Source: Candidatus Eiseniibacteriota bacterium (lineage in GTDB: Bacteria; Eisenbacteria; RBG-16-71-46). Taken from it: a stretch of 64,000 nt of DNA. This document shows positions 6,347 to 58,072 of this stretch, piece by piece; positions within the stretch are counted from its first letter, which is position 1, and each line of letters starts with the position of its first letter. The stretch spans positions 3,616,001 through 3,680,000 of the forward strand of contig OY970342.1 in NCBI GenBank assembly GCA_963717505.1, read 5' to 3'. Under the pieces are notes generated by a model, which worked only from the letters and a program-made list of their open reading frames with translations, was not told the origin of the DNA and did no database searches. The position numbers and the translations under genes were made by a program.

Positions 6347-8752
6347 TCAGCGTTGGGGCAGCGGACCGCGAACCGTCGTTTCCTTCGCCTCCCGGACTCG
6401 GTGCTCGCGGCCTCGCCAATCCACTCGTCGCACTCCCCGGCCGTCGAGCGCGAACCACAGGGCGCCCTCGCGATCGGTGCGCGCGACCCGCACGCCGGCC
6501 GCCGCCAGTCGCGCCAGCACGCCGGCGTCGGGGTGACCGTAGCGATTGCGCGCCCCGCACGAGATCGCCGCGAACCCGGGACGGGTTCGCGCCAGCAGCT
6601 CGGCGCTGGTCGACGATCGCGATCCGTGATGCGCCACCTTGATCAGATCGGCGCTTCCGACCTGGAGCAGCGTCTCCGCTGCCGCGTCCACGTCCGCGAG
6701 CAGCAGCACGGCCCCGCCGGAGGTACGCAGGGCCAGGACCAGCGAACGATGGTTGCGCCCCGGCCGTTCGGGCAGCGAATCCTGAGCCGGCGGCCACAAC
6801 ACGACGGCACCGCCGCAGGAGAACAACGTGTCGCCGCGCAACACCGACCGCCAGCGCACATCGCCACCGACCGCCCGCGCCGCCTCATCGGGAAACGGGG
6901 TCGCAGCCACTGCGGCCGGAACCTCGCGCAGCACCGAGGCGACGCCGCCGGCGTGGTCTCGATCCGCGTGCGTGAGCACCACCCCACTCAATCGACGCAC
7001 CGCCGCCCAGCGGAGAAACGGCAGCACGCGCGAAGCGCCGGCATCCCCGCGCGGGTATCCGGGCCCGGTGTCGACCAAGCACCAACCTCGCGCGGAGCCG
7101 ATCGCGATGGCGTCGCCCTGGCCGACGTCGAGCACCACCACCCACGTGGTTTCCGCCGGCGGTGCGAGCGGGCGCATTCCGGCCGCCGAGATGATCGTCG
7201 CCAACAGCATCGTGCCCCCGATCAACGCCGCGCCGAGAACCCAGAGCGGAGTCTCGATTCTGCGTGCCTCGAGGGTTCGCCCCTGGAGTGCGGCGGCCAG
7301 CATCAGCACCGCGCTGCAAGCAGAAACCCACCCCAATGCCGCTCCCGATCCGGTGGCAACGAAGGCATGCGGAATCGCCGCTCCCCAGTCGCTGGCGTAT
7401 CGCAGCGCACGCGCCAGCGCCTCGCACGCGGCGAACCAGACGCGTCCGGTTCCCGGGAGCGCCAGCTCCCAAAGCGCCGCCACCCACGCGGCCGCGAGCA
7501 GCATCGCGGAAAGCGGTACTGCGACCAGGTTCGTGACCGGCGCCACCCACGCGACACCATGGAGACGCGACAGCAGGAGTGGTGCCGCGGCAATTTGAGC
7601 GCCGAGAGTGCCCGACAGTCCGTGAACCAGTCCGCGCCCTTTCGGCAGGTGGCGAACCGCGTGAAAGCCGCCGATCAGCCCGGCGGTCGCCGCGCACGAC
7701 AACTGAAAGCCCAGGTCTCGCGACCAGCCCGGCGCCACGATCAACAGACCCAGCGCACTCACGGCCAGCGCCTGCACCCCGTCCAGCGCGCGGCCGCTGA
7801 ATCGAGCCAGCGTGGCGAGTGATTCCGTGACGGCAGCGCGGGCCAGGGACGGCAGGGCGCCTGCGATCCCCACATAAAGGAGGGCGCACAGGGCTCCCGC
7901 CGCGGCGCGCACGCGAAGTCCGCCGCCGAGTGCCGCGGCGCCGACCCGCACGGCGGCGGCGAGGCCGCTCACGTGGAGCCCGGAGAGCGCGATGACGTGA
8001 ACGATCCCGGCCGCCCGCAAGCTGGCGCTGAGCTCGCTCGACATCGCGGTGCGATCACCCGTGACCAACGGTGCGATCAGCTCGTGAGCTTCGGGCGTCA
8101 GCCCGGCCGACAGTGCGCGCTCGATCGATCGCCGCCCCTGCACCACCGTCGCCCTCGACCACGACCCAATTCTCGAAGACCCGTGCGGGGCGGCCGCGAG
8201 CCCCTGGCCCTGAGCGACGACCGCCGAGGCGTCGGCGATGCCACGCGGATCGACGCCGCCCGGGTTGCGCGCCGGCCCCGGCGTCTCGAGCCGCGCCACA
8301 ATCTCGACCGAGTCCCCCCACTCGGCTCGGGTGCCGGCCGGCAACCACAGGCGCAGTCGCGAGCCACGAGGTAAGGGCGGCGTTGCGTCCGCCACGATCA
8401 CGCTCGCGAGCGGAGATTCGGACTCGCGCGCCGGGTGGCCGTCGATCGTGCCGCGAATTCGGTAGAGAGATCCTGCATCCACCGAGCGACGCTGAACCTC
8501 GAGCACCGCGACGTGGGCGGCGTATCGGCCGGCGCCGGCGAGTGCGATGGCGACCATAAGCGCCAAGTCGGCGGCGCGACCCGAGCGCAGGCAACCGCCG
8601 ATCGCGAACGGCAACGCGATCGCGAGCCACACGGCTGCGGCGGCCGGCGCCACGCCACCCAGCAGCATGCCGAGCCACATCGCGACGGCCACCGGAACCG
8701 CGCAACGTCCACCCATGCTTCGGCGCGCCGGGAAGAAGCGTGCCGGCGCCAA
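6347..8752 (-). CDS. comEC: DNA-uptake competence protein ComEC/Rec2
   Basis: Multi-TM competence domain (GIVHVIALSGLH, GFQLS) plus metallo-beta-lactamase domain (DVGQGDA, THADRDHAGG, KVAHHGS, NRYGHP). Confidence 0.95.
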   Translation of the reverse strand: MAPARFFPARRSMGGRCAVPVAVAMWLGMLLGGVAPAAAAVWLAIALPFAIGGCLRSGRAADLALMVAIALAGAGRYAAHVAVLEVQRRSVDAGSLYRIRGTIDGHPARESESPLASVIVADATPPLPRGSRLRLWLPAGTRAEWGDSVEIVARLETPGPARNPGGVDPRGIADASAVVAQGQGLAAAPHGSSRIGSWSRATVVQGRRSIERALSAGLTPEAHELIAPLVTGDRTAMSSELSASLRAAGIVHVIALSGLHVSGLAAAVRVGAAALGGGLRVRAAAGALCALLYVGIAGALPSLARAAVTESLATLARFSGRALDGVQALAVSALGLLIVAPGWSRDLGFQLSCAATAGLIGGFHAVRHLPKGRGLVHGLSGTLGAQIAAAPLLLSRLHGVAWVAPVTNLVAVPLSAMLLAAAWVAALWELALPGTGRVWFAACEALARALRYASDWGAAIPHAFVATGSGAALGWVSACSAVLMLAAALQGRTLEARRIETPLWVLGAALIGGTMLLATIISAAGMRPLAPPAETTWVVVLDVGQGDAIAIGSARGWCLVDTGPGYPRGDAGASRVLPFLRWAAVRRLSGVVLTHADRDHAGGVASVLREVPAAVAATPFPDEAARAVGGDVRWRSVLRGDTLFSCGGAVVLWPPAQDSLPERPGRNHRSLVLALRTSGGAVLLLADVDAAAETLLQVGSADLIKVAHHGSRSSTSAELLARTRPGFAAISCGARNRYGHPDAGVLARLAAAGVRVARTDREGALWFALDGRGVRRVDWRGREHRVREAKETTVRGPLPQR

Positions 8753-48440: not shown

Positions 48441-50675
48441 TCAGGAGGGGTCCGGCACCGCCGGATAGAGGCGCTCGAATTCCGGCTCGCCGTGCAACGA
48501 CTGAAGGTCGGGATCACGTCGCGCCCAGATGGGATCACGATATCCAGCCTTCCAGGCCTTGCTCATCGCGTCCAGGGCCTCGGCCTTCCGGTTGAGCAGG
48601 CAGAACGTGCACGCGGCGTTGTAGTGCACCATCGCCTCGTCGGGTCTCAGCACCATGGCCAGCCTCGCCTCGCGCAGGGCATCGTCGGCGCGGTCCATCA
48701 TCGCGTAGTAGGCGGCCAGCAGGGTACGGGCGCGCGCATCCTCGGGCATCTCCTTCAAATGGCTCTCGAGCGCGAGCATGGCCCTTTGCCTCACGTTCCG
48801 GAGCGCTTCCTCTTTGCCCAGCGTGTTGAGGGCGTTCATGATCGGCACGTAGACGTTGTAGTCCGTGCCACTCGCTTCCAACGCGGCATCCGCCATCGCC
48901 ACGACCTCGTGATGACGGCCCGCCGAGAACAGGGCGCGCAAGATGAGATAGTAGGCACCCTCGCAATCGCTCTTTCGCTCGATGGCGAGGCGGGCGCAGC
49001 GAATCGATTCCTCGACCCTGGCGCTCGCATAGTGGATCCAGCCCTGGGCGACCTGCACCTCCGGCAGCTCCGGCTGCAGCGTCACAGCCCGTTCGCACGC
49101 CGCCTGCGCCCGATCGATCCACGCGAGTTCGCGATCGTATAGGTAGTAGTAGCTCGCGCAGACGTTGGCGATTGCCGCAAAGGCGAGCGCGAACAGCGGA
49201 TCCTGAGCGACGGCGCTCTCGAACATTTGCAGCGCGAAGTCGGCGTCGTGCCGGGTCAGGCGGCGGGCGTAGCTCTTGCCGCGCAAATAGAGATCGTACG
49301 CCTGCAGATTCTCCGTGGGTTTGGCGGCCAGCGCCTCCTGCTCCTGAGGCGAGAGCGTGATCCGCAGGGCCTCGGCGATCTTGCGCGCGATCTCGTCCTG
49401 GACCTCGAAAACGTCCTTCATCTCGCGATCGTAACGCTCCGACCAGAGCGGGAAGTCGGTCTGCGTGTCGACCAGCTGGGCATTGATCCGCAGACGCGCG
49501 CCGGCACGGCGCAGGCTGCCTGCGAGCACGTAAGCCGCCTTGAGCTGCTGGCCGATCTGCGCCGGGGTCACCTGCTTGTCCCGATAGGCAAGCACGGTGG
49601 GACGCGAAAAGATGTTGAGCCCACGGATCTTGGAAAGCTCGGTGATGATGTCCTCCGTGATTCCGTCGCGGAAATACTCGTCCTCTTTGACCCCGCTCAA
49701 GTTCTCGAAGTAGAGGACGGCGATCGACTTCTCAGCCTGCTTGCGCGCCCCGCCGCGTGACTCACCCGCGTCCGCTGCTCGGCGTCCACCCGACTCCAGG
49801 TCGCGCTTGAGGCGGATCAGATCGGTCTTGAGCTCGGTGGCGGTCTGATACCGCATGTTGCGATCCTTCTCCAGTGCCTTCTCCAGGATCCTGCCCAGGG
49901 CCGGCGGCAGTGCGGGATTGATCGCATCGAGGGCAGGCGGGTCGCGGTTGAGGATCGCCTCGTAGATGACCGCAGAGGTCTCGCCCTCGAACGGCAGGAC
50001 GCCGGTGGCCATCTGGTAGAGCACAGTGCCGAAGGAAAACAGGTCGGTGCGCGCGTCGGTGAGTTGCCCGCGCGCCTGCTCCGGCGACATATAGGAGACG
50101 GTTCCCAGCGTAGTGCCGGGCATCGTGAGTTCGTCCCGCGGACCGACGGTTTCGAGCTGCGAGGCCACGGCGGCACTCGGCACCGCGCGCCGCTCGCCGC
50201 CGACTTTGGCCAGGCCAAAGTCCAGGATCTTTGCTTGAGCGCGGCCGGTCACGAAGATGTTGGCGGGCTTGATGTCCCGATGCACGATCCCCTTGGCATG
50301 CGCGGATTCGAGCGCATCGGCAATCTGAATCCCCAGGGCCACCGTCTCGTCCAGCGGAATCGGCCGGCCGGCCATCTTCTGGGCCAGGGTCTGGCCGTCG
50401 AGCAACTCCATCACGATGAAGTGCTGTTGCTCGTGCTGCTCGATCGCGAAGATCGTGCAGATTCCCGGGTGATTGAGCGCTGAGGACGCACGAGCCTCAC
50501 GTTGAAAACGCTCGAGTGATGCGGCGTCCTGCTTCATTTCGGGGCTCAGGAACTTGAGCGCCACCCGTCGGCCGAGCTTGGCGTCCTCGGCCTCGTAAAC
50601 CACACCCATTCCCCCGCTGCCCAACTGACGGACGATGGTGTAGTGACGAACGGTGTTGCCGATCAGGGGCTCCAT
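48441..50675 (-). CDS. Ser/Thr protein kinase with TolB-N/FlgO-like domain and TPRs
   Basis: [52 protein letters not shown], TPRs ending YNAAC..DPDL. Confidence 0.95.
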
Positions 50676-50763
50676 GAGAGACGCGATGCTAGGGGTCGGA
50701 GTTCCTGCGGTCAAGACATCGCCCCGCTCGGTCGCGCAACGCCAGGGTGGCTCTCTCCAAGGC

Positions 50764-53001
50764 CTAGCCGGGCAAACCCATCGAGAGGACGAGACGGATG
50801 CTTCGTGGCGCCTGAGGATGGGTGTGCACGTCGGCAATCCCTTGCACCGGTTCACGGGGAAGCCGCGACGTGTAGTAGTAGTCCACGTCGCTCACCGCGC
50901 GATCGAGCAGATTGAACACCTGAAGTCCGACCGCCCAGCGGCTGTGTGCGCGATAGCCGAGTTGCATGTTCAGAACCGTCGATGGACGGGAACGTATCGA
51001 GTTGTCCTCGACCAGGGGCCGTGGCCCGAAGTACCGCACGCGCAATCCTGCGAACCCGCCCGCGGGATTCTCGTACTCGACGCCGGCCGAGGCCACGCCT
51101 TCCACCGCCCCGGGGATGCGATCGCCAGCCGGATCGGGGTCGCGGAATCGCGCCCGTGAATACGCAAGATCGGCGTCCATGTGCACATAGCCAACCGGAC
51201 GACATTCGCCCGACAGCTCGATGCCGGTCCGGCGGCTCGGACGACTCTGCGCAGTCAGCCCGGCGTCACCGACGAAGACGGTCTCCGAGGTGATATCGAG
51301 ACCCCAAATCGAAGTGGTGGCCGACCACCCGGGACCGCCAGCGAGCCGCGCACCGACCTCGGCGCCCTGGGTCCGAACGAGCATAGAACTGTTCTCGACG
51401 GGCGGCCCGCCCGGTACCGGAAAGTGTGTTGGCGCCGCTTGAATGCCCTGGGAGGCGCCACTCGAGCTGAAGCGCGCCCCGCGCGCGTCGGTCGAATGGA
51501 AGCCGTAACCCCAGTTCGCATAGAGATCGAGCGGCCCCCAGGGTCCTAGAATGAGGGAGGCTTTGGGAGACACGAGCCCAGTGATGTCATCACCTGAGAA
51601 GGGGGCGTAACTCGACGCCACACTGAATCGATATCCCTCGGCCCGAACCCCGAGCACCGTCCGCAGGCGCGACCTCCATCGTATGTCGGCCTGCACGAAC
51701 GGCGACACGCTCGACTCGAGGACATGGTCTTCCCGAGTCAGGGCGAGCCGACGCCGTGCCTCGGTATGATAGAGGCCAACGTGCGCAATGTTGTCATGAC
51801 GGATGTCGACGCCGATCGTCTGCTGCATTCCGGGATCGCCCGAAACGTGGGAGAGGCGGAGCCCGGTTACGACCCGTTCGTCCGCCTGCTCGATCTGGTC
51901 GCCGTGCAGCGTGTCGTCGAGGAAGTAGGTGAAGTTCGAGAACAAGTTCATTCGATACGCGATGATGTAGGCGCTCGCCTTGGTAGACGACTGAGCCCCG
52001 ATTCGCTGAAGTTGCGCCGAGAGACTGTATCGATACGTCGTCCCTCCGTCCGTCGGATCGATGGCGTCGAATCGGGAGATCACGCCAGAGGCTACCGCCC
52101 GTTCAGGGATCTGGTCGGTCGCGTTCCATCGACCGTCGTAGCCGATCGCGGTGACGCTCAGGCCACGCTCCGGCGTGCCGAGGCTGTAGCGAACCAGCCC
52201 ATTGATCTTCCGGTATTCGTCCGGATGAACCCACGGGCCATCGTTCCGGACCAGCTCGATGGCCCCGAGCACAGTGCCGGATGCCAGGCGTGGCGAAGCG
52301 CCCACCAGCAGCCGAAGATAGCCATCATCTCCCGGTGTGAGTGAAACGATCGGGCCCGGGAGCGCGTTCCGATAGGAGATGTTGGCCGAGCCGGCGCTCG
52401 AGAAGTCTCCGTCCTCCACCGAATAGGTGCCCTTCCGGTATTGAACTCCGCTCACCAATTCGGGGATGGCGAAGCCGAGATCGGTGTAGCCCTGCCCGTG
52501 AGCGTGGGTCGGCATGTTCATCGGCACACCCGCGATCGTCGTCGCGAAGTCGGTGCCGTGGTCGAGGTTGAAGCCGCGCAGATAGTACTGGTTCGCCTTG
52601 CCCTCGCCGCTGTGCTGGCTGATCAGCACGCCGGGAATGCTCTCCAGGACATCCCCGGCGCGGAGCGACGGCCGGAGCGCGAGTTGTTTCGCCGTCACCA
52701 GACCTTGGGATGCGGCCGACCGCGGTGCGAGCGAACCCTCGTATGAACCAACCACTTCGACCGTCGGGAGGACGTATTTCACCTTGATGCTATCAGCCTC
52801 GGTCACCCTCGCGGTCGAATCGGACGCCGCACCGGGCGGCTCATTGGCACGGACCGCCGGCGATCGGGTCAGGAGAGCGCCGGTCAAGCTCACCAGGAAG
52901 ACGGCAACGGTCCGGACCCTACCCACACGCACCCGACGCCCAGGTTCAGCGATCACGTGATGAGTCCTTCCACTGCCAGGGCGACCGCAAACGCTATCCA
53001 T
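50764..53001 (-). CDS. TonB-dependent receptor (probably metal uptake)
   Basis: Plug [34 protein letters not shown], barrel, C-terminal FNLLD..DVHTHP..PRS. Confidence 0.92.
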
Positions 53002-53050: not shown

Positions 53051-55273
53051 TCAGAACTTCGCGGTGACCCGCACGGTCACGTTACGGCCGGGGGCTTCCG
53101 CGTACGTCTTGTAGCGGCTCATGAAATCCCGATAGGACTCGTCGAACAGATTGCGCACGGTCAGGTCGACGTCCACATTGCGATCCCCGGCCGGGATTTG
53201 CACTCCGGCCTCGAGGTGCGCCAAAGCGTATCCGTCGGTCGCGGTGTCGAACGGGTCGAGCCGTGTCTGCTCGGCCACGAACTCGCCGCGCATCCCCACG
53301 TGGCTCTCGATCCGACCGAACGCCTCCGGCTCCCAGCGCACGCCGAGTTGCCCGCGAAACGGCGGAATCCATGGCAGCGGCACGTCCGACGTGGTGTTGT
53401 CGCCGACCACGTGCTCGGCGGTCGCCATCAGATGGACCTGTGCGATCGGGTGCAGCTCGCCCGAAAACTCGAAGCCGGAGAGCAGGGCGTCGCCCTGGAC
53501 GACCTGGAAGATCTCGAAGCCGGAGCCGGGATCGATGTTGCCCGTCGGCTGCGAATAAATGAAGTCCTGGATCGAGTTCACGAAGCCGCTGATCTCGGCT
53601 CGCGCCCGAGACCCCTGGAATCGAATCGCGAGGTCGCCGTTGAGCGACTGCTCGACGTCGAGACCCGGATCGCCGACCTCGAACGCCACGGTGCCCTCGT
53701 GCACGCCGTTCGCGAACAGGTCGAAGCTCGAAGGCGCGCGGAAACCGCGGCCCAGGTTGGCGACCACCGCCGTATTCTCCCCGATCCGGTAGAGCGCGCC
53801 CAGGTTGCCGGTGACCGCGTCCCAGGTTCGCGTCTGTGCGGTCACGCCGAGATCGACGTCGTCCTCGGCTTCGAGCTCACGATGGTCGTAGCGCACACCG
53901 AACGACCAATGCCAGGCGTCGCGATCGATCTGCTCGAACGCAAACAGGGCGGCGTCCCACGCCGAAGAATTAGGGATCAGCGACTCCTCTCCCGACTTCT
54001 CGAAGTCCTGGTTGAAGAACGACGCGCCGACGATGCCTTCGAGCGGGCCCAGGGCTCGATGCGTGTATTGGGCGTCGGCGGTGGCAGTGGTCGCCTCGAG
54101 TCCGAGCGCGACGTTGGGGTCGTCCGCGGCCTCGAACTCGCGCCGGAAGTTGCGCTCGTATGCGCCGCGAACCTGGATGCGCTGGCCGCTTCCAATCGGC
54201 AGGAGCAGCCGCGCATTGCCGGCGTCGTCGATGATCTTCTGGTAGGGCGTTGCGGTCGGATCCTCGGCCGGATCCTCGTGGATCTGGATCTCTTCGTTGC
54301 GATGGGTGTAGCCGCCGTCCACCGAGCCCCAGCCACCGCGCCAGCCGACTGCGCCACTGCCGGTCAAGGCTTCGTTTCCGCTGTTGAACAGGTCCTCCGA
54401 GGGGGTGCTGATGTCGTCGCTCTCCCGCGTGACGAAGCCGCCCCGCCAGCCGAAACCCTGGACCCCGCCCTCGAGCATCGCACCGCCCTCGAGGTTGTCG
54501 TCGACCGAGCCAGCCGCGCCGAATACCGATCCACGCACGATCGGCCCGCGGTCGAACGCGGTCGGCAGCTCGCGATGGATGACGTTGACCACCCCACCCA
54601 GCGCGTCCGAACCGTAGAGCACGCTCGCCGGTCCGCGGATCACCTCGATGCGTTCGATGCTCGCGGTCTCGACTTGAGGACCGTGCTCGTCGCCCCATTG
54701 CTGGTTCTCGATCCGCTGCCCTTCGTTGACCATCACCACCCGGTCGGAGCGGAGCCCGCGGATGCTGGGCTTGCCGACGCCGCTGCCGGTGCTCCAGTTG
54801 CGGACCCCGGGCAAGAGCTCGAGTGTCGCCCCGAGCGAGGGCTGGAGCGCCGAGTGCAGCTGCTCCCCGCTGAGCACGCTGGTCGGCTGCGGGGAGGTCA
54901 GGGCTTCGGTCGGACTGGGGCTGGCCGTGACCTGGGCGCCGGGGACCTCGATCATGGACTCGCGCAGCGTCACGTCGAGCGGCGCCTGACTGGTGAACAC
55001 GAAATGGCGAACCTCGGTCGCGTAGCCGATGCGCTGGAACGACACGTGGTAGGTACCGAACGGAACCGCGGGGATCGTGTAGCGGCCGTCGGCGCCGCTG
55101 GCGGTGCCGCGGCGCAGCTCGACAACGCTGACCTGGACCTCGGGGACGCCATTCCCCGCCGCGTCGAGAACGTGGCCGGAGAGCGCTGCCGACCGGGCTT
55201 CCGCAGCAACCTGTGCGCTGGCCGGCCTCGGCGCCGAGAGCAGCAGCAAGACAAGAACTCCAAGGATCCGCAT
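53051..55273 (-). CDS. TonB-dependent receptor with N-terminal carboxypeptidase-regulatory-like domain (ZnuD-like plug)
   Basis: KPSIRGL..QQWGDEHG..ERIEVIRGPASVLYGSDALGGVVN, ANGVHEGT, NLFDESY..PGRN..KF. Confidence 0.95.
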   Translation of the reverse strand: MRILGVLVLLLLSAPRPASAQVAAEARSAALSGHVLDAAGNGVPEVQVSVVELRRGTASGADGRYTIPAVPFGTYHVSFQRIGYATEVRHFVFTSQAPLDVTLRESMIEVPGAQVTASPSPTEALTSPQPTSVLSGEQLHSALQPSLGATLELLPGVRNWSTGSGVGKPSIRGLRSDRVVMVNEGQRIENQQWGDEHGPQVETASIERIEVIRGPASVLYGSDALGGVVNVIHRELPTAFDRGPIVRGSVFGAAGSVDDNLEGGAMLEGGVQGFGWRGGFVTRESDDISTPSEDLFNSGNEALTGSGAVGWRGGWGSVDGGYTHRNEEIQIHEDPAEDPTATPYQKIIDDAGNARLLLPIGSGQRIQVRGAYERNFRREFEAADDPNVALGLEATTATADAQYTHRALGPLEGIVGASFFNQDFEKSGEESLIPNSSAWDAALFAFEQIDRDAWHWSFGVRYDHRELEAEDDVDLGVTAQTRTWDAVTGNLGALYRIGENTAVVANLGRGFRAPSSFDLFANGVHEGTVAFEVGDPGLDVEQSLNGDLAIRFQGSRARAEISGFVNSIQDFIYSQPTGNIDPGSGFEIFQVVQGDALLSGFEFSGELHPIAQVHLMATAEHVVGDNTTSDVPLPWIPPFRGQLGVRWEPEAFGRIESHVGMRGEFVAEQTRLDPFDTATDGYALAHLEAGVQIPAGDRNVDVDLTVRNLFDESYRDFMSRYKTYAEAPGRNVTVRVTAKF

Positions 55274-55384
55274 GGTCACCTCGAAATGGCGGCGTCCTCC
55301 GCGCGCGTGGGCGGGCGGAAACTGCCGCGACTTGATGGACTGCAGGAGGTGCGCGGGCCGGAGGGCCCGCGAGGTCACCGCGAA

Positions 55385-55699
55385 TCAGGAAATCGGCGGA
55401 GCGCGCGGGAAGCCGGCGGGAGCGTGAACCTGCGGCTTCGCGATTGCGGGACAACCGGGGCGGGGGTCTTCGGCGGCAGGCAGCGGCGGTGGGCCGACGT
55501 CGCCATCCTCGACCACTGCGGCGGCATGAAGCGACGAGCACGCGGTGCACGGATGCAGTCCGCCGCGCTCGTTCTCGCACGCCGGGTCACTCAGGTGGTG
55601 CCAGACGTGTGCGGCCGATCCGAGCACCAACACGGCGAGCGCGACGTAGGACAGCGGGCGCAGCCACGCCAGTGTTCGAAGTCGATCGGATCGGGACAT
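55385..55699 (-). CDS. DUF2946/CruR-like leader protein with His/CxxC motif and C-terminal RAPP arrest motif
   Basis: Hydrophobic N-terminal segment, HVWHH..C..HPCTAC..H, Pro-rich linker, terminal FPRAPPIS*. Directly upstream of the TonB-dependent receptors. Confidence 0.85.
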   Translation of the reverse strand: MSRSDRLRTLAWLRPLSYVALAVLVLGSAAHVWHHLSDPACENERGGLHPCTACSSLHAAAVVEDGDVGPPPLPAAEDPRPGCPAIAKPQVHAPAGFPRAPPIS

Positions 55700-55757
55700 C
55701 GCGCCGGGATTCAACCACGCAAGACCCGGAGCCCGCAATGCGCCTTGATCGCCACGT

Positions 55758-55806
55758 AAGATGGTGGAGCTGAACGGGATCGAACCGTCGACCTCTTGAC
55801 TGCCAG
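55758..55806 (-). repeat. Displaced 3' fragment of tRNA-Ala (att-site direct repeat)
   Basis: 49 bp identical to 57993-58041: AAGATGGTGGAGCTGAACGGGATCGAACCGTCGACCTCTTGACTGCCAG. Confidence 0.93.
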
Positions 55807-56179
55807 ACCTTCACCGCCGCCAGCACGAAGCGACAGTCGCGCAATGTATTGCCAAGATCCACAAGGGATTCCGTGCGCCCCACAGCTGGGCCTCGCGGGC
55901 ATCCAAAGGCAGCGAAAGCCCCCCGGAGGAACAGCGAACGGGACGGATTGTCCCGTTTATCCTCTTGGCCTCCGGCTAGCAAGGCGAATAGGCTGGGCCG
56001 GACTGCTGGGCCGGCGACCCGCGGATGCTGTCTGGAGGGCAAGGATGCCGCAAGAATGCAAGACTTGCTCGACCCCAATCGGTTTGAGATCGACCGCCTG
56101 GTCGCCGAGGGTGCGGCAATGTGACGCGCCGGCGCCGAAGCGGTAAGTATCCCCGCATGCACCGCCGGGGATTCAGCCC

Positions 56180-57904
56180 ATGAATGATTGGGTCGGCCGC
56201 ACCGTTTCCCACTTCAAGATTCTCGAGCGACTGGGAGGCGGGGGAATGGGCGAGGTCTATCTCGCTCAGGACACGACGCTCGGGCGGCTCGTGGCGCTCA
56301 AGTTCATCTCGGAATCCATCCAGGACAACCCGGTCGCAGCCGATCGGTTCATGCGAGAGGCGCGCGCCGTCGCGGCGCTCAACCATCCTCACATCTGCGC
56401 GATCTACGAGACGGGGGAATTCGAGCGACAGCCGTTTCTGGCTATGGAGTACCTGAAAGGAAAGACCCTCCGCGACGAGATCACAGCGCAACCCCTGGCT
56501 CCGGCTGACGTGACGAACATCGCCCTCCAGCTCGCCGATGCGCTGTCCGAGGCCCATACGAAGGGAATCCTGCATCGAGATCTCAAGCCTGAGAACGTCT
56601 TCCTCGTGAAGAAGCGGACGGTGAAACTCCTGGACTTCGGGCTGGCCAAGTCGTTTGGCGCTTCCGCCAATGCCACGGACGCCACGACGATCACCGAAGA
56701 TCGGACCCTGGAGATGCCGGCGCCGGCCCGCCCCGATCTGCCGACGATCACGCAGGTCGGCGCCCTGGTCGGAACCCTGAGGTACATGTCACCCGAGCAG
56801 CTCCGCGGAGAGCGGCTGGATGCGCGCTCCGACCTATTCTCATTGGGAATTGTCCTCTACGAGGCAATCATCGGGAAAGCGCCGTTCGCTGGCACCATGG
56901 CTCACGAAGTGTGCCTGTCCATCCTGAACGAGACGCCGCCGCCCCCGCGATCGCTCCGCGGCGATGTCCCGGAGCCGTTGTCCAAGCTGATCGATCAACT
57001 ACTCGAGAAAGATCCGGACCGTCGCTTCGAGTCGGCCGCCAAGCTGAGCGATGCGCTGATGGGCGCGACGCCGAGCGCACCCTCGAACGTCGTCGCGGAG
57101 GGACCCGCGGTTGCTCTGCCCTCGCTCGGCGTCAAGCGATCCAGCCTGCACGTCTGGGTTTTCACGGTGGGCTTCATTGCGATCCTGGAATGGTTGCTCC
57201 TGACCATGGTCTTCAAGCGATCGCCGAGCGGCGTGGTCGGCTGGATGGGTCTCGGGGGAGCAATCTGCATCGCGATCAGTCCCGTCGTCTGGGGGCTCTC
57301 GCTCATGAGGAGGCAACGCGAAGGCGCGGCGCGTGTGGTTCGCCTCCAGGCACCGCCCGATTCACGCGGGAGGATCCGGCTGACGTGGTGGGCCGTGGTC
57401 TCTTTCACCGTGCTGTCCAGCCTGGGTCTTGTTTTTCTCGTCATCGTCTGGCTGCTGCCGACTTCGGGACCCGCGAAGACCGCTCCCCCCACGGCGCCAT
57501 CCCTGATCCCCTTGGTAATCGCATACGTGCCCGTGACCGTGCTGTTTTGGACCATCCTCTTGCGATCGCGTGGCTGGCGCCATGGAACGCGAACGCGCTG
57601 GCATCGAACGATGGACCTCGAGGTGAACGGGACGTATCCGCAGGTCCTGGCGTGTTGCTCGCACGCCATGTCGGCCGTGGGAGCGCGGGTGACGGGGCTC
57701 GACTTGGATCGCGGACTGATCGACGCAAGGACGCCGGTGAGCCTTCTGAACTGGGGTGAAAGGCTCACGTTCCGGGTTCAGCGCAGTGGTGCTGAACGAT
57801 GTTCGATCGCGCTCGAAAGCGATTGCTTGAATCCCGTCATTCTCTCGGACTTCGGGAAGAATGCCGCCAACCTGAGAAAGATCGCCGAGACGATGGTGGT
57901 CTAG
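56180..57904 (+). CDS. Ser/Thr protein kinase with four C-terminal TM helices and a small terminal domain
   Basis: GGGGMGEVY, VALK, HRDLKPEN, DFGLAK, YMSPEQ, hydrophobic helices, then GLIDARTPVSLLNWGERLTFRV. Confidence 0.93.
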   Translation: MNDWVGRTVSHFKILERLGGGGMGEVYLAQDTTLGRLVALKFISESIQDNPVAADRFMREARAVAALNHPHICAIYETGEFERQPFLAMEYLKGKTLRDEITAQPLAPADVTNIALQLADALSEAHTKGILHRDLKPENVFLVKKRTVKLLDFGLAKSFGASANATDATTITEDRTLEMPAPARPDLPTITQVGALVGTLRYMSPEQLRGERLDARSDLFSLGIVLYEAIIGKAPFAGTMAHEVCLSILNETPPPPRSLRGDVPEPLSKLIDQLLEKDPDRRFESAAKLSDALMGATPSAPSNVVAEGPAVALPSLGVKRSSLHVWVFTVGFIAILEWLLLTMVFKRSPSGVVGWMGLGGAICIAISPVVWGLSLMRRQREGAARVVRLQAPPDSRGRIRLTWWAVVSFTVLSSLGLVFLVIVWLLPTSGPAKTAPPTAPSLIPLVIAYVPVTVLFWTILLRSRGWRHGTRTRWHRTMDLEVNGTYPQVLACCSHAMSAVGARVTGLDLDRGLIDARTPVSLLNWGERLTFRVQRSGAERCSIALESDCLNPVILSDFGKNAANLRKIAETMVV

Positions 57905-57996
57905 CGGCTCTCTGACGATCGATCCACCTCGACGTCGGTCTCTGTCGAGCCCCGGAGCGCGCGTCGGACTCCCCTCTCACATCTGCGAAGCCAAGA

Positions 57997-58072
57997 TGGT
58001 GGAGCTGAACGGGATCGAACCGTCGACCTCTTGACTGCCAGTCAAGCGCTCTCCCAACTGAGCTACAGCCCC
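57997..58072 (-). tRNA. tRNA-Ala(GGC)
   Basis: Reverse complement GGGGCTGTAGCTCAGTTGGGAGAGCGCTTGACTGGCAGTCAAGAGGTCGACGGTTCGATCCCGTTCAGCTCCACCA: G3.U70 pair, anticodon GGC, encoded CCA. Confidence 0.98.

Follow-up and report, generated by a model that had tools for sequence, protein, structure and literature searches.

A probable CruR-type sensor-arrest leader ahead of two TonB-dependent receptor genes in a Candidatus Eiseniibacteriota bacterium

We analysed a stretch of 64,000 nt from the genome of a Candidatus Eiseniibacteriota bacterium (assembly GCA_963717505.1, contig OY970342.1, positions 3,616,001 to 3,680,000 of the forward strand). This whole stretch is called the window below, and positions are counted within it. 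On its minus strand, a short open reading frame (ORF) lies ahead of two tandem genes for TonB-dependent receptors. Its product is very probably a diverged sensor-arrest leader of the CruR type, i.e. a relative of CruR, CutF and the DUF2946 family. Our preferred reading, to which we give a probability of roughly 60%, is that expression of the receptors is controlled by ribosome occupancy of this leader, which protects against Rho, and that an RNA helix formed over the first receptor's initiation site serves as an accessory lock.

The leader peptide and its family

The leader ORF has 104 codons and runs from an ATG at 55699 to a TGA at 55387-55385 (55385..55699, minus strand, as are all features of the operon). 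A charged N-terminus is followed by a hydrophobic stretch of 18 residues (residues 13-30, 55610..55663), which is conserved in alignment A1 and may be either a signal peptide or a membrane anchor. Next come an HVWHH motif (residues 31-35, with His31, His34 and His35; 55595..55609; alignments A1 and A2), a third conserved cysteine, Cys41 (55577..55579), nearly invariant in A1, and the CxxC motif C51-T-A-C54 (55538..55549), both cysteines of which are nearly invariant in alignment A2. A Pro/Ala-rich spacer then separates CTAC (51-54) from RAPP (99-102), encoded by CGC GCU CCG CCG (55394..55405), which is the presumed arrest site, and the peptide ends with Ile, Ser and the stop. If the arrest geometry given in excerpts of PMC10951233 is applied to this RAPP, Pro101 would occupy the P site of the putative arrested ribosome, and Pro102 its A site.

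The ATG of the first receptor (55273) lies 111 nt beyond the leader stop. This gene (740 aa, 53051..55273) has the Pfam domains CarboxypepD_reg, Plug and TonB_dep_Rec_b-barrel, and the second receptor gene (745 aa, 50764..53001) has Plug and barrel domains. The original prediction for this locus, made from the letters alone, had described a 104-aa ORF with a signal-like N-terminus, HVWHH, CTAC and a terminal RAPP-I-S-stop, two tandem TonB-dependent receptors some 110 nt after it, and a leader resembling CruR. Translation returned the same coordinates and letters for the ORF, the Pfam domains confirmed the receptors, and the likeness to CruR was upheld by the downstream receptor gene and by the motif spacing and terminal motif described next.

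A word-based protein search returned a single relative, P0003, which is 64% identical over the full length and of equal length, so that an exhaustive HMMER profile search was needed to reveal the family. Run against 1.84 billion representatives, it found 151 proteins at E≤1e-3, 96 of them at E≤1e-10, nearly all 85-130 aa long. Besides P0003, a second close relative, P0060, stands at 57% identity. Six-frame searches also gave clear leader homologues in related genomes, and in a profile search over 89 genomes from the same GTDB family the leader turned up in 49. Motifs were counted over the 150 listed representatives. The C-terminal region carries RAPP in 130 and RGPP in 18 (148/150 together), with exactly 2 residues after the motif in 122 of these 148. 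The spacer, which runs between the final Cys of the CxxC (or CxC) and the Arg of RAPP/RGPP, is exactly 44 residues long in 127 of the 140 representatives that have the Cys motif; it is 44 in the window (C54 to Arg99) and in all 14 loci translated directly, where its length is fixed though its sequence is not conserved. In A2, P102 is invariant, and H34, H35, C51, C54, R99 and P101 are nearly so; A1 keeps H34 and H35 in every sequence. The histidines take the form HxxHH in 108/150 representatives and HHH in 20/150.

Nor is the leader RAPP an accident of composition, given that the motif is rarer than expected in the proteins of this genome: 19 copies were observed against 35.6 expected, and RGPP is likewise depleted (6 against 26.2), both counted in a rough gene set. 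This matches the depletion reported in excerpts of PMC12992588.

The window peptide was not matched by the PF11162 (DUF2946) profile at E≤1 or E≤10, nor was the leader locus picked up when the whole genome (G000) was searched with PF11162. The peptide nevertheless aligns over its full length with relatives that do match (A1, A2). Within A1, 7 of 15 sequences match at E≤10 (best 5.1e-5), and in a scan of 150 sequences, the window peptide and 149 family representatives (A2), 37 match at E≤0.01 (best 3.4e-7). A search with the DUF2946 model had been suggested with the original prediction; its outcome is that the window peptide belongs to DUF2946 only transitively, through these intermediates, and that the family is a diverged DUF2946 branch which the Pfam model mostly misses. 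An NCBIfam scan of the leader gave no meaningful match.

As described in excerpts of PMC9426467, the DUF2946 logo holds CXXC, RAPP and one semi-conserved Cys. By alignment, HxxHH and the third Cys are thus subfamily features beyond that description. For the putative sensed metal, copper is the default guess, solely because both studied members of the family use it; nothing here favours Ni, Zn or Co, as floated in the original prediction, over it.

The same genome, a single contig of 4.16 Mb with 67.7% GC, contains a second CruR-like leader outside the window (G000:C1:3559719-3560012, minus strand), with HQHH, CAVC, a 44-residue spacer and RAPP-L-A-stop; no CCU is present in its RAPP codons, and a gene for a secreted porin-like protein of about 375 aa lies about 118 nt downstream.

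The helix, the arrested ribosome and Rho

The minimum free energy (MFE) structure of the minus-strand RNA 55420-55250 has −77.8 kcal/mol (z −2.91), a value as low being reached by 1 of 200 shuffles. In this fold the leader stop region is paired with the Shine-Dalgarno (SD) sequence of the first receptor, with the G of its AUG and with codons 2-6, through GAUUCGC:GCGGAUC, GGU:ACC, ACCUC:GAGGU and UUCC:GGAG; a GC hairpin and local intergenic structure are nested inside. The 5′ arm (55370..55390) takes in the Ser104 codon and the UGA stop and continues for another 15 nt, and the 3′ arm (55259..55283) consists of the SD GAGGUGA (55282-55276), the AUG (55273-55271) and the first codons. The SD:anti-SD duplex amounts to −9.1 kcal/mol. 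All 25-nt windows in the 230 nt upstream were also searched for the best complement of the receptor region −20 to +12, and compared with dinucleotide shuffles. The best complement starts 1 nt before the leader stop codon, with −30.0 kcal/mol against −24.9 +/− 2.5 in the shuffles, of which 3 in 200 reach the observed energy. With so few shuffles doing as well, the helix can be taken as real and moderately better than chance. Masking of the SD is another matter: the modelled probability that the SD is unpaired is 0.21 in the window, compared to a mean of 0.34 in 150 other genes of this genome with a strong SD, 24% of which are at 0.21 or below, and the predicted masking is ordinary for this GC-rich genome.

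The nested hairpin (55352..55371, 8-bp stem, CUCC loop) directly follows the stop, and the 45 nt after the leader stop fold with −23.9 kcal/mol (z −2.83). Of 29 related loci, 20 have a hairpin in the same place, inside the first 45 nt behind the stop, with an apical stem of 6 bp or more; against mononucleotide shuffles the mean z is only −1.0, and 7 of the 29 are below −1.5. Also intergenic is a second anti-SD-like word, CACCUCCU (55344..55351), predicted to pair with the SD region if the first arm is masked (fold from stop+13).

How far an arrested ribosome would reach into the helix can be estimated from toeprint distances, as a ribosome holds about 15-16 nt of mRNA downstream of the first base of its P-site codon. 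At arrest that base would be 55399, which would put the end of the footprint at about 55384-55383, 3-4 nt past the stop codon; the arrested ribosome would therefore cover just the outer third of the 5′ arm. Such a footprint would melt UUCC:GGAG and part of GAUUCGC:GCGGAUC and leave 12 bp in place, including ACCUC:GAGGU over the SD. In the model, the probability of an unpaired SD passes from 0.21 in the free RNA to 0.23 when positions −27..+3 are blocked or when all RNA up to stop+3 is removed, to 0.30 with a wider footprint (−27..+7), and to 0.32-0.42 with a ribosome at the stop codon, values which, as thermodynamic models of GC-rich RNA, cannot settle whether the helix opens. When the first arm is masked, the SD is paired again in the fold, either by CACCUCCU (55351-55344) or by a segment of the leader ORF. 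Over the 29 related loci the mean rises from 0.26-0.28 (free) to 0.31-0.32 (stalled), and the gain exceeds 0.2 in only 4 loci, the window not being among them.

These results divide the earlier proposal of a SecM-like anti-SD switch. Pairing of the stop region with the receptor SD and AUG was correctly foreseen, arms included, and is part of the MFE structure. The further step, in which a ribosome paused at RAPP covers the 5′ arm and frees the ribosome-binding site (RBS), is not supported by geometry and modelling for the window locus, as 12 bp stay over the SD and accessibility moves from 0.21 to 0.23-0.30.

A C-rich, G-poor tract (55290..55502) extends over the last third of the leader ORF and on through most of the intergenic region, and could serve for Rho loading. 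Sliding 40-nt windows hold more C than G from about −115 to about +100, counted from the stop. The excess of C over G in the intergenic region is +0.117 in the window and positive in 29 of 29 family intergenic regions (mean +0.111), for a genome background of +0.031 +/− 0.073 over 185 co-directional gaps, 10.8% of which reach 0.11; part of this skew is a by-product of Pro/Ala-rich coding, the last 300 nt of leader ORFs standing at +0.083, and C>G skew predicts Rho sites only weakly. A rho gene is present in the genome (719 bits for a cut-off of 509). Together, the C-rich tract, the hairpin and rho fit a rut-like tract that an arrested ribosome could shield, though as predictors they are weak, and with all 29 intergenic regions C-rich and G-poor and rho present, attenuation by Rho of the CruR type fits at least as well as the anti-SD switch. 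A scan of 55150-56050 for promoters and terminators gave none, intrinsic terminators included, and an Rfam scan of 54000-58000 (E≤1) gave one miRNA match by chance and nothing else.

Partner genes and arrest codons at related loci

Enough downstream DNA was available at 30 related loci (too little at L041 and L045); L042 was left out of the RNA analyses as its downstream start could not be set. A receptor gene lies downstream only in the window and at L010+. The usual partner (L002-L009, L013, L030-L051) is a secreted, porin-like protein of about 380 aa without Pfam match, which has a conserved AGVxNPDISVIGQP start and falls near porin-like clusters in the protein atlas, clusters that carry BBP2 and Porin_O_P on a minority of their members. 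This partner may be a metal-regulated passive channel. A few loci have an OmpL-like BBP2 porin downstream instead, and a good SD is present at all loci. One query of the window's genome did not find the porin-like partner of the relatives. L010 (G022:C87) carries two leaders placed back to back, one on each strand, with about 500 nt between them; a TonB receptor follows one of them (238-nt gap) and a BBP2-type porin the other.

Codon choice at the presumed arrest site is strongly biased. In 23 of 32 loci CCU encodes the first Pro of RAPP, compared to 16 of the 260 other Pro codons of the same leaders and to a genome-wide CCU usage of 5.1%; by a hand count based on genus labels, CCU is found there in 10 of 14 genera. 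For the Ala codon, GCU is used in 13 of 32 loci, against 5.6% genome-wide. Written with GCU and CCU, the site reads CUCCUCC, to which GGAGG is complementary. In 16 of 29 loci, the 25-nt segment that best complements the downstream initiation region shares 8 nt or more with the arrest footprint, where about 22% would be expected for a uniformly placed window; this overlap was counted by hand, with a criterion set after seeing the data. In distant relatives, the partner of the SD is usually the RAPP codons rather than the segment after the stop.

Searches for further relatives added little. Metagenome scans with the window peptide and P0003 as queries gave 596 and 595 pattern matches, none of which was confirmed. 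A scan of the genome collection with A4 gave two loci, both rejected: L056 duplicates the L043 leader, and L057 is spurious, having no ORF with RAPP. Four DNA sequencing runs yielded only a few short contigs of low depth that match the window exactly, with no variant letters, and also tRNA-like pieces from other organisms.

Mechanism, surroundings and known systems

In the reading that we prefer, the two receptor genes would be governed by ribosome occupancy at the leader's own 3′ end. At arrest the CxxC, just out of the exit tunnel, would bind metal, perhaps aided by Cys41 and HxxHH, and this binding would alter the duration of the arrest. As in CruR, the arrested ribosome would shield the C-rich RNA from Rho, so that the operon would stay on under metal scarcity; once the ribosome had been released and had terminated, Rho could act on the naked RNA. 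The released stop-proximal segment would then pair with the receptor SD and AUG, and the untranslated receptor message would favour Rho further. The helix would thus be an accessory translational lock, formed after the ribosome has left, and not a switch that the stalled ribosome opens.

The codon bias suggests an extension of this scheme, which as a whole we regard as tentative and rather improbable. The arrest codons GCU-CCU-CCN would themselves have been shaped into an anti-SD, making the stall site an RNA lock that opens only under a ribosome; in the window this lock would have shifted about 20 nt downstream, behind the stop, with partial opening by the arrested ribosome combined with Rho; HxxHH and the third Cys would tune this subfamily to a metal other than copper, and porin-like channels would be gated in addition to TonB receptors. 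One clade of six loci is consistent with pairing of the arrest codons: the PPxx codons are paired with the SD in 90% of cells, 3 of 10 pairs have changed on both sides, and the covariation score is reached by 3 of 500 shuffles, slid controls being 31-62% paired.

Several results weigh against the preferred reading. The structure of the six-locus clade was derived from the same sequences that were used to test covariation, and the related loci are kin, so that counts over them overstate independence. Locus-specific RAPP:SD complementarity does not reach significance (own −15.5 against cross −14.8 kcal/mol, permutation p 0.07), and the synonymous-codon null is beaten (p<0.1) in only 11 of 29 loci, with p 0.88 for the window. 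The window is itself an exception, as it has CCG CCG without a CCUCC word and its complement lies after the stop codon; its RAPP:SD duplex (−6.0 kcal/mol) is the weakest of the 29 loci. To this must be added the failure of PF11162 to match the window peptide and the limited value of the C>G skew, both reported above. Finally, no PepSY_TM gene was present among the six ORFs scanned at the locus, and the gene that follows the receptors encodes a Ser/Thr kinase with TPR repeats (48441-50855, minus strand).

Three rival explanations were considered as well. A pure anti-SD switch of the SecM or CutF type, as first proposed for this locus, in which the arrested ribosome melts the helix and metal-triggered release lets it form again, with no part for Rho, is doubtful in our view. 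It draws on the helix being the predicted MFE structure, pairing both the SD and the G of the AUG, with a duplex energy that 3 of 200 shuffles reach; on the outer 9-10 bp, where receptor codons 2-6 lie and which an arrested ribosome would melt; on the anti-SD of the relatives, which lies in RAPP codons and beneath the arrested ribosome; and on the stall-opened, SD-shielding stem-loop described for CutF in excerpts of PMC9973294 and 10.1101/2025.02.05.636593. The window argues otherwise, since the 12 bp that include ACCUC:GAGGU stay outside the footprint and the unpaired probability goes from 0.21 to 0.23, or 0.30 with the wider footprint, while CACCUCCU (55351-55344) and the upstream segment replace a masked first arm. 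A gain above 0.2 in only 4 of 29 loci, and a masking of the window SD that is ordinary for the genome, speak against the switch as well. That the helix is a chance complementarity in GC-rich RNA, the leader being a plain exported metal-binding protein or acting through Rho only, is a still less probable account. In its favour are the 24% of the 150 control genes whose SD is predicted to be masked equally or more, a helix position that is not conserved in relatives and several alternative partners for the SD. It sits poorly with the 3/200 shuffles that reach the duplex energy, and the enrichment of complements near the arrest site together with the CCU bias argues for selected SD pairing in the family; moreover, if the protein acted only after its release, it would be difficult to account for the exact 44-residue spacer and the constant 2 codons ahead of the stop.

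Polarity could also be reversed, as in CutF: metal would prolong the arrest or passage to the stop, a ribosome at the stop would transiently open the helix, and the receptors would be switched on by metal or coupled to complete translation of the leader. SD accessibility is indeed highest in the model with a ribosome at the stop codon, which covers to about +12 (0.32-0.42 against 0.21), and CutF has this polarity in excerpts of PMC9973294. An uptake receptor induced by its own cargo metal would make little physiological sense, though, CruR, which is the receptor-controlling member, works in the opposite sense in excerpts of PMC9426467, and the modelled gain is small; we hold this explanation to be highly unlikely. 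Control by ribosome occupancy that protects against Rho, with the helix as accessory lock, remains our preferred reading.

The best relative of receptor 1 with a solved structure is ZnuD (E 3.9e-22, covering the plug and part of the barrel), followed among others by Cir, PhuR and OprC (OprC at 1e-13); none of its 16 solved-structure matches at E≤1e-10 is a chain named CrtA. Against NCBIfam, models of hemin, ZnuD and copper receptors came out best for receptor 1, all of them far below their cut-offs.

On the other side of the leader is a second Ser/Thr kinase gene (56180-57904, plus strand), so that kinase genes flank the leader-receptor operon on both sides. This gene lies in the 2.2 kb between the two copies of a perfect 49-nt direct repeat (55758-55806 and 57993-58041), where no integrase was seen. 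The upper copy is the 3′ part of a tRNA-Ala(GGC) gene (57997-58072, minus strand), and the lower one is an orphan fragment whose end is 59 nt above the leader ATG. The arrangement has the look of a scar left by an insertion into the tRNA gene, an event that would have moved the leader operon away from the tRNA. Elsewhere in the window, ARAGORN called a 91-nt tRNA of undetermined type (7405-7495, minus strand), with a two-base anticodon readout (gg).

The locus would extend the CruR/CutF principle, in which a nascent peptide reads metal and sets the length of its own stall, to a poorly known, non-proteobacterial lineage. It also belongs to a subfamily that the Pfam model largely misses, with its exact 44-residue spacer, added His/Cys motif and mostly porin-like partners. 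For annotation, this means that unannotated leaders of about 100 codons flag genes for outer-membrane uptake whose expression is probably under metal control once transcription has begun. The most interesting by-product is the codon bias at the stall site, seen at the level of the family: CCU in 23/32 loci is a testable hint that a stall site and an RBS mask can be the same RNA segment.

The class of leader, and both ways of coupling it to the downstream gene (Rho and anti-SD), are already published. A parallel for the helix is offered by SecM-secA of Escherichia coli, where arrest takes place near the 3′ end of the upstream ORF (uORF), a helix hides the downstream SD, and the masking arm lies under the arrested ribosome. 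Our locus shares with it the presumed arrest site near the leader 3′ end and the helix over the downstream SD; it differs in that the ribosome would reach the outer third of the arm only, and in that the signal would be metal and not export force alone. With ApdA, ApdP and RAPP uORFs at large it has in common a RAPP at the C-terminus of a small, exported or membrane-bound protein (putatively so in our case) placed upstream of the regulated gene. In the excerpts of a survey of RAPP/RGPP uORFs, TonB-dependent receptor genes are among the enriched downstream genes, across Gram-negative phyla (PMC12992588), whereas ApdA and ApdP monitor protein export and sit before genes of the Sec pathway (excerpts of PMC10951233 and PMC12992588); unlike in these two, metal-ligand motifs are found here at a fixed distance from RAPP.

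CutF of Rhodobacter capsulatus is the DUF2946 leader of cutFOG, in which, according to excerpts of PMC9973294 and 10.1101/2025.02.05.636593, copper-prolonged stalling melts a stem-loop masking the SD of cutO. An anti-SD design having been published for a DUF2946 protein, the switch first imagined for the present locus is not new in kind. The two systems share an exported leader (here one with an export-like N-terminus), a Cys motif, a Pro-rich C-terminal stall motif and an mRNA structure that shields the next SD. CutF, by contrast, has CxxxC and a PPP-type motif and controls a copper-induced, detoxifying multicopper oxidase, where here an uptake receptor would be controlled; and our masking helix reaches across all 111 nt between the genes, while the part that covers the SD lies outside the expected arrest footprint.

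Another close parallel is CruR (Bp2923) of Bordetella pertussis, a DUF2946 uORF before a TonB-dependent transporter in cruR-crtA(bfrG)-bp2921 (excerpts of PMC9426467 and PMC12914433). As the excerpts of PMC9426467 have it, the arrest is lifted when copper is sensed through CXXC, which sets off Rho-dependent termination in the stretch between leader and receptor, the spacing of CXXC and RAPP is 45 residues, kept within 1-2 in more than 2000 proteins, and RAPP lies three residues before the end; those of PMC12914433 place a PepSY_TM gene in more than 75% of crtA loci. The differences are that the window peptide has no PF11162 match and ends 2 residues after RAPP instead of 3, that it has the invariant HH (in HxxHH) and a third conserved Cys after its hydrophobic segment, that no PepSY_TM gene accompanies it, and that its receptor is not obviously CrtA-like, the best solved relative being ZnuD; the host lineage is non-proteobacterial, and on our side the comparison is one of sequences. 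What the two have in common is a small uORF with an N-terminal hydrophobic, export-like segment and a TonB-dependent receptor gene downstream, a stop codon 2-3 codons past RAPP, an mRNA that is C-rich near the leader 3′ end, and a long GC-rich intergenic region, of 111 nt here and 162 nt in CruR.

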